Source of the DNA: Gallaecimonas xiamenensis 3-C-1
GTDB lineage: Bacteria; Pseudomonadota; Gammaproteobacteria; Enterobacterales; Gallaecimonadaceae
DNA: 57,353 nucleotides
Assembly: GCF_000299915.1 (NCBI RefSeq)
Contig: NZ_AMRI01000027.1
Location: forward strand, 1 to 57,353
Reading direction: 5' to 3'
The first letter of the stretch is position 1. Each line of letters opens with the position of its first letter. The position numbers and the translations under genes were made by a program. Under the pieces are notes generated by a model that had not been told where the DNA came from, searched no databases, and was given only the letters and a program-made list of their open reading frames with translations. Of this stretch, positions 20,152 through 25,640 are shown in pieces.

Positions 20152-20177
20152 AAAAGCCGCCCACAGGGCGGCTTGTT
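20151..20177. terminator. Rho-independent terminator hairpin
   Basis: AAAAAGCCGCCC-aca-GGGCGGCTTGTT between convergent genes. Confidence 0.5.
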
Positions 20178-20934
20178 AATGATCCAGGGCCAGGGTCTTC
20201 ATAAAAAAAGCATCGAAGCTGGCCATGGGCGCCTTGTCCCTAAGGGGCGGCTTGCAACTTTCAAGGGCGTTAAGCTCCCTTGCCATAAAAGCGGCCAGCT
20301 CGGCCGACAGCACCAGTTGGTCTTGCTCCAAGGCTTGGCGCTTGAAGGCCAGCAGGCTTTCGAGCTGGCCCGTTATGGCCGCCCCCAAACCCAGGCCCTG
20401 GTAGAGGGCGGTAAAATCCAGGGGCGGCAGGCTGTCAAAGCGCAGCAGCCAGCGGGCGCACAGCAAAGGCCGCAGCACATAGAGCGCCCCTTTGACGCTC
20501 AGGCCGCCCCGGCCATTGACCTTGGCATTGCCCTTAGCCATGGACAGGTAATGGTAATAAAGGGCCCTTGGCTGCCAGCTGTCCGCCATCAGCTGGCGCG
20601 TGGCGCCAAGCCAAACCTCATCGGCCCGGTACAGTATGGGAGAGCGCAGCCATTCCAGCAGGCTGGGGTTGCTGGCCCTGAGCAAGGTCAGGGTTTTATC
20701 CAGATCCCAGCCGGCAAAGTCCAGCTCGTCCACTATCGGCTCGGTGAGGGTGTCGCTGCGTTTACCCAGGCTCAGGTAGTGGCTTACCGGGCGGCGATAG
20801 ACAAAGCGCACGTCAAAATCGCTGTCCGGTGAGGCAAAACCCCAGGCACGGCTACCCGACTCACAGGCAAAGAGTATTTCCATGCCTTCCCTGGCCTCCA
20901 GGGCCTTTAACGCCGTCAATATCCGTGTTTTCAT
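20176..20934 (-). CDS. DNA polymerase beta-superfamily nucleotidyltransferase (COG3541 / RlaP-like, RtcB-associated family)
   Basis: ILFACESGSRAWGFASPDSDFDVRFVY is a GS...D.D minimal NTase motif. Start overlaps the SPFH stop by 4 nt. Confidence 0.65.
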   Translation of the reverse strand: MKTRILTALKALEAREGMEILFACESGSRAWGFASPDSDFDVRFVYRRPVSHYLSLGKRSDTLTEPIVDELDFAGWDLDKTLTLLRASNPSLLEWLRSPILYRADEVWLGATRQLMADSWQPRALYYHYLSMAKGNAKVNGRGGLSVKGALYVLRPLLCARWLLRFDSLPPLDFTALYQGLGLGAAITGQLESLLAFKRQALEQDQLVLSAELAAFMARELNALESCKPPLRDKAPMASFDAFFMKTLALDH

Positions 20935-22073
20935 GCTTTATTCTCCGAAGTCAGTTTCACCAGCCCTGTCATCAATTGCTCAAGGCCGCCATAGACGTTC
21001 AAGTGCCCTACCCTTTCCACCACTTTTTCAAGGGATTCCAGTTCCTTAAGGCGCAGCAGCACTGGGCTGGCCTCCATCATCTTGGCGGTGTTGCCAAGGG
21101 AGCGGGTGGCGGCGGTTTCTTCGCGGCGGCGAATCAGGTTAGCCTCGGCCGCTTTTTGGGCCTCTACCACCTGGTTGAGGATGGCCTTCATCTCCCCAGG
21201 CAGGATGATGTCCTTGACCCCCACATCCGCCAGTTCGACACCCAGTTCCTGGGCAACCGGGCCCAGCATCCTGGCCACCGCTTTGCTGACCGCATCCTTG
21301 TCGGCCAATAGCCCGTCCAAGGTGCGGGTACCCACCACTTCTCTGAGCACCAGTTGCAGGCGCCGGTACAGGTGCTCATCCACCTTCTTCACCTGCCGGG
21401 CCACCTGCAGCGGATCGGCAATGCGGTACGCGGCACTGAGGTTGATGCGCAGGCTCACCCTGTCTTTGGTGAGGATCTCCTGGCCGCTCACTTCCAGGCT
21501 TTGCCAGGTGAGGTCGAAGATCCGTGCCTGCAGTTCCCGGTTGAAAGCCCAGTAGCCGTAACGGCCAGGCGGCAACTCGGCAATCAACTCGCCGTTTTCA
21601 AACAGCAGCGCCTGGCTTTGCTCGGGAACCGACAGGGCGGTAACCGCCTGCTGGTTGCCCACCCGCACCAGGCCCTCACGCAGCAAAGCGGACAGCAGGG
21701 CGTTGGGCAGCGGCGCCTTGTCGGCCAGGGCGAAGCGCTCGATACGCAACGCCGGGCCGTCTTTAAAGCTCACATAGCGGCTGCCGGGCACCAATACCGC
21801 CAAGGGTTGGTTGTCTCGCCAGATAACGGCGGTTTCTTCAGGCCCGACTTGCCAGATGTTGACCGCGTCGCAAAAGGCCGGCTTTTGCAACAACAGGTCG
21901 AGATTAGGGTGCGTCAGCTCGCTTTGTGCCAACGACAGAGATTCAAATTGCAGCCCTTGGCCGGGCATCCAAAACCAGTGGCGGCCAGGGGCCAACAGGG
22001 TTTCAAAACGGCCTCGGCGGTACACCAGTACCCGCTGGCCATCGCTGACATCCAATTTATTGATAAAAAACAT
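20931..22073 (-). CDS. SPFH / band-7 domain protein
   Basis: Start MFFINKLDV behind a perfect AAGGAGA SD. Stomatin/prohibitin-like central domain with a coiled-coil C-terminus. Confidence 0.75.
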   Translation of the reverse strand: MFFINKLDVSDGQRVLVYRRGRFETLLAPGRHWFWMPGQGLQFESLSLAQSELTHPNLDLLLQKPAFCDAVNIWQVGPEETAVIWRDNQPLAVLVPGSRYVSFKDGPALRIERFALADKAPLPNALLSALLREGLVRVGNQQAVTALSVPEQSQALLFENGELIAELPPGRYGYWAFNRELQARIFDLTWQSLEVSGQEILTKDRVSLRINLSAAYRIADPLQVARQVKKVDEHLYRRLQLVLREVVGTRTLDGLLADKDAVSKAVARMLGPVAQELGVELADVGVKDIILPGEMKAILNQVVEAQKAAEANLIRRREETAATRSLGNTAKMMEASPVLLRLKELESLEKVVERVGHLNVYGGLEQLMTGLVKLTSENKA

Positions 22074-22111
22074 TTTTCTCTCCTTGTTATGGATCCCGGC
22101 GGGGGAGCTGG

Positions 22112-22180
22112 CTACTGGCAAAAAGCGCTGTCAGGGCAGCCTTGCCTGGCTGCTGCGGCGTCCCTGCCGCACCCTGACGG
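22112..22180 (-). terminator. GC-rich hairpin plus U-run (terminator/attenuator) between the tRNA-like RNA and the SPFH gene
   Basis: Read on the minus strand: GTCAGGG..GCAGCC-aggcaag-GCTGC..CCCTGAC, then AGCGCTTTTTGCC. Confidence 0.35.
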
Positions 22181-22285
22181 GGCTTTTCCGTGCGGGTAAA
22201 GGACTACCCTCACCTGCTGCTGCCCACCGGGTTGATACTTCAGCCGGTAAACCGCACCGGCCGAGGTATCGCTTGTCATTGTGTT

Positions 22286-22406
22286 TTTAGATGAGGGACT
22301 CGAACCCCCAAGCCCTAAGGCATTCCACAGGTTGGATTGAGCTGGACTCGAACCAGCTACAGCCGAATTAACACTCGGTGCTCTACCTAATGAGCTATCA
22401 ATCAGG
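22286..22406 (-). ncRNA. tandem tRNA-like elements: a 71-nt tRNA-Asn-like pseudo-tRNA, then a partial T-arm/acceptor element; candidate Y-RNA-like / tRNA-mimic sRNA
   Basis: Minus strand reads TGATTGATAGCTCATTAGGTAGAGCACCGAGTGTTAATTCGGCTGTAGCTGGTTCGAGTCCAGCTCAATCC. It has a canonical D-arm (GCTC..GGTAGAGC) and T-arm (GCTGGTTCGAGTCCAGC) and a 6/7-bp acceptor stem. The anticodon stem only forms with a 6- or 8-nt loop. The GUU-like loop is TGTTAA, there is no CCA, and the 1-72 pair is mismatched. The second element is GGGGGTTCGAGTCCCTC plus a 3' acceptor strand. Confidence 0.45.
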
Positions 22407-22449
22407 AGAATGGCTATCCCTGGCGGTACATCCTTCCCCAGCGGGGGGA

Positions 22450-22465
22450 TGCCGGCCTGGTGCCA
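22450..22465 (-). promoter_or_regulatory. candidate sigma-54 (-24/-12) promoter driving the tRNA-like RNA / SPFH-NTase operon
   Basis: Minus strand TGGCAC-caggc-CGGCA. GG and GC are at the canonical spacing, ~35 nt upstream of the tRNA-like element. Confidence 0.35.
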
Positions 22466-24252: not shown

Positions 24253-24257
24253 CTGGC

Positions 24258-24275
24258 TATCTATTTGGATAGATA
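24258..24275. promoter_or_regulatory. perfect inverted repeat TATCTAT-ttgg-ATAGATA; candidate RtcR upstream activator / IHF site
   Basis: 7-bp arms ~80 bp upstream of the -24 element of the rtcB promoter. Confidence 0.35.
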
Positions 24276-24336
24276 AATCATTACCCCTTCGGCCACCAAT
24301 GCTATCAAGCCATTGAAATTAAATGACTTTAAAGAT

Positions 24337-24352
24337 TGGCACTGTCCTTGAT
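24337..24352 (+). promoter_or_regulatory. candidate sigma-54 promoter of rtcB
   Basis: TGGCAC-tgtcc-TTGAT. The -24 box is perfect; the -12 is TTGA instead of TTGC. ~40 nt upstream of the rtcB GTG start. Confidence 0.45.
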
Positions 24353-24390
24353 TAAGACTTGGATACCACAGACACCAACACAAGGAGCAA

Positions 24391-25610
24391 CAGTGCAATA
24401 CCAAGTAACCAAGAGCCAGGGTGGCCTCATTAAAAGCTGGACCAAGGGCGTGCCTTTCGACCCCAAGGCCCAGGCGCAATTGGCCAACCTCGCTGCCCTG
24501 CCCTTTGTAGGGCCCTGGGTGGCGGCCATGCCCGATGTGCATCTGGGTAAAGGGGCCACTATCGGCTCGGTGCTGCCCACCCAAGGCGCCATTATTCCTG
24601 CCGCCGTTGGCGTGGATATCGGCTGCGGCATGATGGCGGTCTGTACCGACCTGCACGCCCGCCAGCTGCCCGACTCCCTAGCCGCCCTTCGCAGTGAGCT
24701 GGAGCGGGTGATCCCCCATGGCCGCACCCAAGGCGGCCGCCGGGGCCAGGACAGAGGCGCCTGGCACAACGTGCCGGACGACATCGCTGGCGTGTGGCAG
24801 CAACTGCAAGGTGGCTTTAAGGTCCTGTGCGACAAGCACCCGGAGCTTGAAAAGACCAACAACGTCAACCACCTTGGCACCCTTGGCACCGGCAACCATT
24901 TTGTGGAGCTGTGCCTGGACGAGCGCGACCAGGTCTGGCTGATGTTGCACTCGGGCTCAAGAGGCGTGGGTAACCGTATCGGCGAGCACTTTATCGCCCT
25001 GGCCAAAAAGGAAATGGAGCGCCACCAGATCCAGCTGCCGGACAGCGACCTGGCCTATCTGCGCGAAGGCAGCGCCCATTTCGACGACTATGTGGCCGCC
25101 GTCGGCTGGGCCCAGCAATACGCCCGCCTCAACCGCCAGGCCATGATGCAACGTGCCCTTGGCGCCCTGGCCAGGGTGCTGGGCAAGGCCGTTGTGGTTG
25201 AGCAGCAAGCGGTGAACTGCCACCACAACTATGTGCAGCAGGAACAACACTTTGGCGAAACGGTCTGGCTGACCCGTAAAGGGGCGGTAAGCGCCCAGCA
25301 AGGGGAGCTGGGGATCATCCCCGGCAGCATGGGCGCCCGCTCCTTTATCGTGCGCGGTAAAGGTAACGCCCAGAGCTTTTGCAGCTGCAGCCACGGCGCC
25401 GGCCGGGTGATGTCCCGCACCGAGGCCAAAAAGCGCATCTCCGTTGCCGAGCACGCCAAGGCCACCGCCCATGTGGAGTGCCGCAAGGATGCCGAAGTGG
25501 TGGACGAAAGCCCGGCCGCTTACAAGGACATCGACGCGGTGATGGCGGCCCAGGCCGACTTGGTGGAAGTGGTGCACACCCTGCGCCAGGTGATCTGCGT
25601 AAAAGGTTAA
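24391..25610 (+). CDS. rtcB: RNA-splicing ligase RtcB (3'-phosphate/5'-OH RNA ligase)
   Basis: GTG start after an AAGGAG SD. WTKGVPFD...MPDVHLGKGATIGSVLPTQGAIIPAAVGVDIGCGM is near-identical in pattern to E. coli RtcB. 406 aa. Confidence 0.9.
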
Positions 25611-25612
25611 CA

Positions 25613-25640
25613 AGCCGCCCACCGGGCGGCTTTTTTCTTG
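25613..25640 (+). terminator. Rho-independent terminator after rtcB
   Basis: AAGCCGCCC-acc-GGGCGGCTTTTTTCTT. Confidence 0.65.

Follow-up and report, generated by a model that had tools for sequence, protein, structure and literature searches.

A 57,353-bp contig of Gallaecimonas xiamenensis 3-C-1, taken over its whole length and called the window below, contains a candidate RNA-repair locus at positions 20154-25632. On the + strand, rtcR is followed by rtcB; on the - strand lie, in order of transcription, a tRNA-like RNA, a gene for an SPFH/Band-7 protein and rlaP, a nucleotidyltransferase (NTase) gene (Table 1). A first-pass annotation made from the sequence alone had proposed this divergent layout, and searches with Pfam, ARAGORN and Rfam bear it out; all gene calls of the locus were checked and upheld. 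We read it, with a probability of about 0.8, as an RtcR-controlled RtcB RNA-repair system, in a variant with a Band-7/SPFH protein, a tRNA-like RNA, RlaP and two divergent sigma-54 units.

Table 1. Features of the rtcR-rtcB locus and of the divergent RNA-SPFH-rlaP unit, with positions in the window
Feature	Position	Strand	Details
Intrinsic terminator 3' of rlaP	20154..20174	-	AAGCCGCCC-TGT-GGGCGGCTT then TTTT
rlaP, Pol-beta-superfamily NTase	20176..20934	-	252 aa; EKE68919.1 (exact match)
SPFH/Band-7 ('slipin family') protein	20931..22073	-	380 aa; EKE68920.1 (exact match); no transmembrane segment
3' part of leader RNA	22117..22290	-	hairpins 22270-22234 and 22209-22194; branched stem 22178-22130; T5 run 22128-22117
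Second T-arm module	22291..22332	-	GGAAU; hairpin GCC-UUAG-GGC (22321-22312); T-arm GGGGG-UUCGAGU-CCCUC (22309-22293)
tRNA-like element ('b7a-tRNA')	22333..22404	-	ARAGORN 'tRNA-???'; Rfam tRNA, 46 bits
RNA 5' domain, three-way junction	22408..22493	-	closing stem GAAUGGC...GCCAUUC; P1 22474-22455; P2 22453-22425
Sigma-54 (-24/-12) promoter of RNA-SPFH-rlaP unit	22504..22519	-	TGGCACGGCCTTTGTA; kept in L081 and L082
IHF-like A/T-rich site	22552..22564	-	TTTAAAACAATGA; 32 nt 5' of TGGCAC
Two tandem palindromes, probable RtcR sites	22625..22665		CTTATCTATCCTGATAA and TACGATAGTA (- strand reading); adjoin rtcR start
rtcR (CARF, AAA+ sigma-54 activator, helix-turn-helix)	22666..24252	+	likely TTG start; 528 aa
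Inverted repeat, probable RtcR site of rtcB promoter	24258..24275	+	TATCTAT-TTGG-ATAGATA
Sigma-54 promoter of rtcB	24337..24352	+	TGGCACTGTCCTTGAT; 41 nt before GTG start
rtcB, 3'-phosphate/5'-OH RNA ligase	24393..25610	+	405 aa, from GTG after AGGAG
Intrinsic terminator 3' of rtcB	25612..25632	+	

RtcR was recognised by Pfam (RtcR, 3e-79; Sigma54_activat, 5e-49), by the NCBIfam equivalog NF038308 (794.8 vs a cut-off of 650) and by the PADLOC model RtcR--CARF_AAA_HTH (4.7e-250), and it is 57% identical to E. coli RtcR. Its open reading frame (ORF) extends 5' to an ATG at 22618 (544 aa). The TTG is most likely the true start, because the alignment to the E. coli RtcR N-terminus begins at 22669, the corresponding gene in a close relative (L082) is called at 528 aa, and palindromes directly adjoin the rtcR start codon in other loci. 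RtcB matches Pfam RtcB at 441 bits and shares 61% identity with its E. coli counterpart across residues 1-408. Here too the listed ORF is longer, and the GTG is most likely the start rather than 24336, which falls within the promoter, because an AGGAG precedes the GTG. RtcR was the sole PADLOC match, there being no defence-system model for the SPFH protein, RlaP or RtcB.

RtcA is missing, as had been proposed: a tblastn search of all 57 kb, with the E. coli protein as query, gave a best E-value of 0.54, and the same query was positive in 50 of 80 related loci (see below). The first-pass annotation had also excluded rsr and archease; neither is encoded by the large ORFs of the ~10 kb to either side, and the claim stands for that range, the rest of the window and small ORFs not having been scanned.

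The divergent NTase belongs to the RlaP family (PF10127, E=4.3e-71, with residues 1-245 on profile positions 1-248 of 249) and not to the aminoglycoside NTases. It carries the catalytic motif SGS...DSDFD (GS...DxD region, ESGSRAWGFASPDSDFDVRF; sequence, ESGSRAWGFASPDSDFD), and its ATG overlaps the TGA stop of the SPFH gene as ATGA, an overlap that had already been noticed. A PDB sequence search with RlaP gave no match, the published PfRlaP structure being either missing from the copy searched or too distant. Two Pseudomonas RlaPs (PfRlaP and PaRlaP) add 1-2 nucleoside monophosphates to RNA 3'-OH ends, favour damaged RNAs and can restore the aminoacylation of over-trimmed tRNA after repair (PMC12776372). 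The earlier suggestion that the NTase adds nucleotides to damaged RNA ends matches this 2025 biochemistry and, by analogy with those enzymes, may apply here.

The SPFH protein matches Pfam Band_7 over residues 164-335 (E=3e-30). Its listed ORF reaches 22121, and the likely start is marked by AAGGAG-N6-ATG at 22085-22071. It had been taken as part of a membrane-associated module, which we do not uphold: no hydrophobic segment was found in the protein (best 19-residue Kyte-Doolittle mean 0.98, vs 2.52 in a neighbouring membrane ORF), and there is no NfeD-type gene among the neighbouring genes. We therefore read it as a soluble SPFH protein, predicted to have no membrane anchor. An AlphaFold 2 model (predicted local distance difference test score 85.7) has an SPFH core and two long C-terminal helices, and predicted structures place an extra beta-rich domain where an anchor would be, in the form of an N-terminal extension of ~150 residues with two beta units. 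A likeness to vaults was considered: the N-terminal repeat domains that precede the SPFH-like shoulder in the major vault protein are not present, and the analogy is unsupported at the repeat level.

Conservation of the linkage in related genomes

Relatives of the SPFH protein are numerous (more than 7,900 at E<1e-10, mostly named 'slipin family protein'). We surveyed 80 genome loci, each anchored on an SPFH relative with 42-60% identity to the window's protein, using tblastn and ARAGORN to score their gene content. Full 8-kb flanks were available for 57 of them; RtcB was found in 52 of these, RtcR in 48, RtcA in 35 and RlaP in 22. The corresponding figures for all 80 were 69, 63, 50 and 26. 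Nearly all 80 have a tRNA-like gene, transcribed in the same direction, 140-480 nt 5' of the SPFH gene. The linkage spans many gammaproteobacterial families and some other lineages.

Gene order takes three forms. In the first, which is that of the window, rtcR and then rtcB face away from the RNA and the SPFH gene, with rlaP following in some cases. In the second, rtcR alone is divergent from a unit of RNA, SPFH gene and rtcB, sometimes followed by rtcA. In the third, rtcR is divergent from rtcB, rtcA, RNA and SPFH gene, in that order. A position directly 3' of the SPFH gene, as in the window, was seen for rlaP in 5 of the 22 RlaP-positive loci with full flanks. The two loci with a 91% identical SPFH protein (L081 and L082) have the exact arrangement of the window and no RtcA, as does Pokkaliibacter (L001), and the absence of RtcA is therefore a secondary loss, specific to the lineage.

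The first-pass annotation had stated that band-7 proteins and an NTase called RlaP recur in RtcB neighbourhoods. The survey agrees, and so does the literature: according to papers that cite it (bioRxiv 10.1101/312249; PMC12776372), Burroughs & Aravind 2016 described the association of Band-7 proteins and b7a-tRNA with RtcB and named RlaP.

These results bear on whether the divergent genes are chance neighbours of rtcR and rtcB, i.e., whether the SPFH-NTase pair is an unrelated module, concerned with membrane microdomains or something else, and the tRNA-like sequence an ordinary or decayed tRNA gene. Database names would allow this, since NCBI uses the generic 'slipin family protein' and 'nucleotidyltransferase domain-containing protein' for the two products, and both ARAGORN and Rfam call the RNA a tRNA. 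It is nevertheless highly improbable. Besides the breadth of the conserved linkage, the RNA-SPFH unit has an RtcR-type promoter and upstream activating sequence (UAS), the SPFH protein has neither a transmembrane segment nor an NfeD partner, and the tRNA-like element has an anticodon loop that is not 7 nt, encodes no CCA and is embedded in a larger covarying structure. The neighbourhood survey effectively refutes chance adjacency, and a genuine tRNA gene is excluded.

Two further features of the related loci were observed. The SPFH/tRNA-like module adjoins an array of 5-19 ordinary-looking tRNA genes in several genomes of Cellvibrionaceae, Kangiellaceae and Pseudomonadales (L010:9995-13706, L024:3881-6830, L029:2599-5875, L038:9597-13408 and L079:3240-6254; also L016, L020, L023, L065 and L069). 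Some of these arrays include a more distant RtcB paralogue (~56% identity), with no RtcR within 8 kb, and the arrays may be spare tRNA sets tied to RNA-damage responses. In many related loci, a second, distant RtcB paralogue (27-57% identity) lies within 8 kb of the SPFH gene (L020:13699-14853, L022:16203-17150, L032:15970-17049, L034:14499-15575, L047:15563-16645, L058:15833-16843 and L068:8881-10032); this may be an RtcB2-type ligase.

Promoters, RtcR sites and terminators

The promoter of rtcB is the sole zero-mismatch match to TGGCAC-N5-TTGM in the 57 kb. It lies within the interval 24330-24360, where a sigma-54 site had been expected, and is 100% kept in the two relatives with a 91% identical SPFH protein. 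The perfect inverted repeat reported upstream of it is also present, with its centre ~71 bp 5' of TGGCAC (~80 bp in the first-pass annotation). This repeat is partly kept in the close relatives (CTATCTATATCGATAA), and similar single palindromes precede rtcB in L001, L004 and L068.

A second sigma-54 site had been suggested at 22440-22470, on the side of the divergent unit. We rejected the candidate there (22467-22452): its TGGCAC is not conserved, reading TGTCGCC in the close relatives, its distance to the tRNA-like element is atypical, and it falls in the loop of hairpin P1 of the RNA described below. The promoter of the divergent unit instead lies at 22519-22504, 99 nt 5' of the tRNA-like element, and for most promoter matches in other loci the equivalent distance is 85-110 nt. 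Transcription is predicted to start at ~22493, ~12 nt after the -12 element, which is where the 5' domain of the RNA begins. Across the related loci, TGGCAC-N5-TTG sites occur before the RNA-SPFH unit wherever rtcR is directly divergent, and also before rtcB; loci with rtcB upstream on the same strand generally have no such site before the tRNA-like element.

Upstream of the divergent promoter are two tandem palindromes (22665-22648 and 22636-22625), and the A/T-rich IHF-like site is placed between them and the promoter. The same 13-mer, TTTAAAACAATGA, is found 31 nt 5' of TGGCAC in E. coli PrtcBA, for which an RtcR UAS, an IHF site and a -24/-12 element are documented (PMC9650030). The interval between rtcR and the RNA has two palindromes, and the region before rtcB has one copy; a 10-mer, GGATAGATAA, occurs exactly twice in the 57 kb, once in the rtcR-adjacent palindromes and once before rtcB. 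The 32 non-redundant promoter regions listed carry palindromes of the TATC-N6/7-GATA type, at a distance of 60-160 bp upstream of the promoter. Because palindromes and sigma-54 sites are shared, both units have an RtcR/sigma-54 promoter architecture, and both look RtcR/sigma-54 dependent, as the first-pass annotation had supposed. By position, the RNA-SPFH promoter corresponds to PrtcBA of E. coli.

A sigma-70-like promoter (TTGCCA-17-TACTAT) is present at 22604-22632(+), just 5' of the likely rtcR start. Its -10 hexamer overlaps the RtcR-type palindrome at 22625-22636, and RtcR could therefore control its own gene.

Both units end at intrinsic terminators, and near-identical hairpins (AAGCCGCCC, loop, GGGCGGCTT and a T-run) occur at three gene ends: 15065-15086, 20154-20174 and 25612-25632. 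The two copies that bracket the locus could be taken for the ends of a mobile cassette. We rejected this because the third copy, at 15065, makes the hairpin a generic terminator (or repetitive extragenic palindromic-like element) of the genome and not a cassette boundary.

The genes on both flanks are unrelated to the system (a TonB-dependent receptor, a PepSY membrane protein, an ankyrin protein, PhaC, Pta-MaoC, acetate kinase and others). The locus is set among genes of polyhydroxyalkanoate and acetate metabolism: a polyhydroxybutyrate depolymerase-type esterase, PhaC, a MaoC-Pta fusion and acetate kinase (10616-12505(-) and 25800-30022(+)). In the relative L081, PhaC and the esterase likewise flank rtcB, and the opposite flank differs (YchF, Pth, L25). 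A JUMPstart RNA element (Rfam RF01707, 54.6 bits) at 2785-2822(-) is distant from the locus and unrelated to it.

The leader RNA and its tRNA-like element

By comparative sequence analysis, the tRNA-like element is part of a covarying RNA of ~370 nt, made up, from 5' to 3', of a three-way junction, the tRNA-like element, a second T-arm module and a set of hairpins. The covariation figures below come from shuffle controls that ignore phylogeny, and the structures were partly read from the same sequences; given the slid controls and the many distinct pair types, we find the helices convincing.

The tRNA-like element lies 260 nt before the SPFH ATG, on the same strand. It forms a full cloverleaf with D and T arms and has no encoded CCA. 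Given the stem CCGAG/UUCGG, its anticodon loop is UGUUAA, i.e., 6 nt rather than the 7-nt decoding loop of an authentic tRNA; ARAGORN reads an 8-nt loop with a 4-base 'anticodon'. Cloverleaf pairing is strong across the loci, with 95.9% of cells paired and a covariation of 0.650 vs 0.195 in shuffles (slid controls <=0.13). A covariance model (R1) was built from 70 of the tRNA-like elements that accompany SPFH genes; it gives the window's element 71.3 bits and the genuine tRNA-Met(CAU) at 57152-57226(+) 71.6 bits. Since R1 scores that tRNA as high as the element, the family looks derived from an elongator Met/Ile2-type tRNA. CUCAUAA is the anticodon loop seen most often among its members.

In an RNA that is very conserved elsewhere, the anticodon loop varies most, with lengths of 4-8 nt and many sequences. 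Between the window (UGUUAA) and its relatives with a 91% identical SPFH protein (UGCCCA; L081:5665-5740), three of six positions differ in a region that is 89% identical, and the loop-closing pair changes from G-U in the window to A-U in L081. This variability raises the possibility that the RNA is a bait or sensor, i.e., an anticodon-arm mimic for anticodon nucleases whose cleavage would soak up the toxin, or would yield a cyclic-phosphate 5' half that amplifies RtcR activation, with the SPFH protein protecting or presenting the bait. The canonical 7-nt CU-NNN-AA loops of many loci (UUU, GUU or CAU), the further anticodon-arm-like hairpin in many second modules, and the nature of RtcR ligands, which are 5' tRNA halves with a cyclic phosphate, all fit such a role. 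However, loop variability could equally reflect missing constraint, the 6-nt loop of the window would be a poor mimic of a real anticodon loop, and an RNA whose own promoter depends on RtcR would be at low levels until induced. Cleavage of this RNA by nucleases is hypothetical, and we consider a bait unlikely.

The 5' domain is recognisable in ~76 of 83 loci, with the conserved junctions AGCGG ... CYGGCRC ... GYGUACC. In an alignment of 72 sequences, 86.3% of the P1/P2 cells are paired, and covariation is 0.588 vs 0.204 in shuffles (0/500 reach the observed value; slid controls <=0.14). The closing stem gives 0.559 vs 0.207 in shuffles. The loop of hairpin P1 is T-loop-like (UUCUGNAUG).

Downstream of the tRNA-like element, the second module takes one of two forms across the loci: a full second tRNA-like element, or a reduced module with no D-arm, in which GG-A/U-AAA is followed by a hairpin of 3-5 bp, mostly GNRA-looped, and then by a T-arm. 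In the window, R1 matches only the T-arm of this module. Exactly two T-loop motifs (GGTTCRANYCC), 42-85 nt apart, precede the SPFH gene in 72 of 82 loci. Of 56 loci, 55 have the hairpin of the reduced module, which occurs in 38 different stem/loop versions; its mean minimum free energy is -3.4 kcal/mol, compared with -0.9 kcal/mol in shuffles.

The 3' part of the leader is 89% identical overall to that of close relatives. Within its branched stem sits a CAGGGA-loop hairpin (22170-22155), which a strict regular expression found on differing stems in 23 of 83 loci. As a whole, the 376-nt stretch of the window folds better than shuffles (z=-3.7).

A leader of this size could also act in cis, as a ~370-nt 5' untranslated region that controls SPFH-rlaP by attenuation at the T-run (22128-22117) or by masking of the ribosome-binding site, and that might sense tRNA or protein through its T-loops, rather than as a stable trans-acting RNA. 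The RNA is always directly 5' of the SPFH gene, on the same strand and with no promoter between, and the Shine-Dalgarno sequence is preceded by a branched stem and T5 run in the window and in its close relatives. That terminator-like end, however, is not conserved in more distant loci, and the element retains an acceptor stem, D-arm and T-arm, which are processing and recognition signals of free tRNAs. Moreover, b7a-tRNA occasionally adjoins Rsr instead of a Band-7 gene and is interchangeable with, and thought redundant to, the Y RNA YrlA, according to a 2018 preprint from the Wolin laboratory that summarises Burroughs & Aravind (bioRxiv 10.1101/312249). This points to a trans-acting RNA, and we regard a purely cis-acting leader as somewhat less probable still than a bait.

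For this RNA, Rfam 15 gave tRNA only, whether the window was searched at E up to 10 or eight other loci at the gathering score; the Rfam Y RNA models had no match at E up to 10 in 22100-22640. ORFs of 125-180 aa run over the structured RNA in the window (22112-22489(-)) and in both close relatives (L081:5433-5975(-) and L082:3341-3883(-)), where the assemblies annotate the overlapping ORF as a gene. It has no Pfam match, and because the RNA covaries, these ORFs are almost certainly spurious.

Proposed working and comparison with known systems

If the locus is an RtcR-controlled repair system, it could work as follows. In Salmonella, RtcR oligomerises when its CARF domain binds 5' tRNA halves with a terminal 2',3'-cyclic phosphate. 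Damage to tRNA would activate RtcR in the same way here, and RtcR bound at the palindromes would, with an IHF-type bend, fire both promoters, for which the architecture is in place. The first unit would supply rtcB alone, 3' of rtcR, and the second the ~370-nt structured leader RNA followed by the translationally coupled SPFH and rlaP genes. RtcB, whose family is established to reseal 3'-phosphate or cyclic-phosphate ends to 5'-OH ends, would deal with simple cuts. RlaP, if it acts as the two Pseudomonas enzymes do, would add 1-2 nucleotides to trimmed 3'-OH ends and so rebuild ends that are short of nucleotides. The SPFH protein has no anchor, and its core and long C-terminal helices are predicted to be those that build rings or cages in relatives. 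By analogy with Ro60 and Y RNA, it might bind the two-elbow tRNA-like RNA to form a cytoplasmic repair scaffold or cofactor. With no RtcA, the cyclic-phosphate ligands would have to come from the nuclease itself.

Several points weigh against this reading. No published experiment places the Band-7 protein or the RNA in repair, and b7a-tRNA was without experimental validation according to a paper that cites the prediction (bioRxiv 10.1101/312249). Deletion of the SPFH protein PaFlo8, which is embedded in the P. aeruginosa rtc locus, gave no phenotype in generic assays (2026 paper). On the side of regulation, the -12 element of the divergent promoter is TTGT, not TTGC; RtcR activation in E. coli needs both RtcA and RtcB (PMC9650030); and in Salmonella, RtcA helps make the cyclic-phosphate ligand. 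A system with no RtcA may therefore be regulated differently. As for RlaP, its products end in 3'-OH and are not directly ligatable by RtcB, a point raised by the RlaP authors themselves (PMC12776372), and this RlaP is tied to the two characterised enzymes by a shared Pfam family. Finally, RlaP is found in only ~40% of related loci and is therefore an accessory part.

A more specific proposal can be made, though only tentatively. The four-domain RNA (~370-430 nt, from the RtcR/sigma-54 start) and the anchor-less SPFH protein might together form a soluble ring- or cage-like ribonucleoprotein that offers RtcB, RlaP or ribotoxins a pair of tRNA 'elbows' and perhaps also anticodon-loop baits. If this were true, tRNA damage control would have a dedicated SPFH-RNA particle in the cytoplasm.

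A part for the Band-7 protein and the tRNA-like RNA in bacterial RNA repair was predicted in 2016. This locus is a compact version of the system, with no RtcA, no Ro60 near and two clean divergent promoters, and it offers handles for experiments: the positions of promoters and RtcR sites, a predicted transcription start, a covariation-backed RNA model that is larger than the tRNA-like core, and a predicted soluble SPFH protein. The finding itself leaves specialists' expectations of RtcB neighbourhoods unchanged. The gene association is already known, and the locus is a further member of a system type published in 2016. The abstract of that study, by Burroughs and Aravind, reportedly names 'SPFH/Band-7 modules' accompanied by 'a novel tRNA-like molecule' and 'a novel nucleotidyltransferase'. 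What may be new is the RtcR-site motif that the two promoters have in common, together with the four-domain RNA, for which Rfam has no family.

Compared with the system of Burroughs & Aravind (Nucleic Acids Res 2016; 44:8525), as known from accessible summaries, the Gallaecimonas locus has the same set of RtcB, Band-7/SPFH protein, upstream tRNA-like RNA, RlaP and RtcR. It differs in having no RtcA, in placing rtcB behind rtcR with its own promoter, and in forming two divergent sigma-54 units. Those summaries mention a 'tRNA-like molecule' only and do not describe flanking RNA domains, the promoter/UAS layout or the missing membrane anchor.

The P. aeruginosa rtc locus has the same SPFH protein (PaFlo8) and RlaP. 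The Pseudomonas RlaPs (Carruthers, Fatma & Huang, bioRxiv 2025, PMC12776372) share the full-length Pfam family and the link to RtcB/RtcR with that of Gallaecimonas. In those Pseudomonas species, however, rlaP lies between rtcB and rtcA, whereas here it is coupled in translation to the SPFH gene, and rtcB lies on the other strand. Canonical membrane SPFH proteins (stomatin/PH1511, HflK/C, QmcA and prohibitin) have the SPFH domain and long oligomerising helices that are also in the Gallaecimonas protein, but the latter has no N-terminal anchor and no NfeD or FtsH partner, and carries its ~150-residue N-terminal extension instead.

The rsr-yrlBA-rtcBA operon of Salmonella, which is also RtcR/sigma-54 controlled, encodes, upstream of RtcB, a putative scaffold protein and a structured RNA, one domain of which resembles tRNA; it is the proposed functional analogue. 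In Gallaecimonas the scaffold would be an SPFH protein and not a TROVE/Ro60 ring, and the RNA has no Rfam Y RNA match. No TROVE-domain Ro60 of a Ro60/Y RNA module occurs among the large ORFs within ~10 kb of the locus, the range that was scanned.

Promoter layout is shared with E. coli rtcR/rtcBA, where rtcR is likewise divergent, the UAS lies by the rtcR start, and the shared 13-mer is found 31-32 nt before TGGCAC in a -24/-12 promoter. The E. coli operon includes RtcA and has no SPFH protein, RlaP or tRNA-like RNA. The position equivalent to PrtcBA drives the RNA-SPFH-rlaP unit in Gallaecimonas, and rtcB sits on a second promoter of its own.

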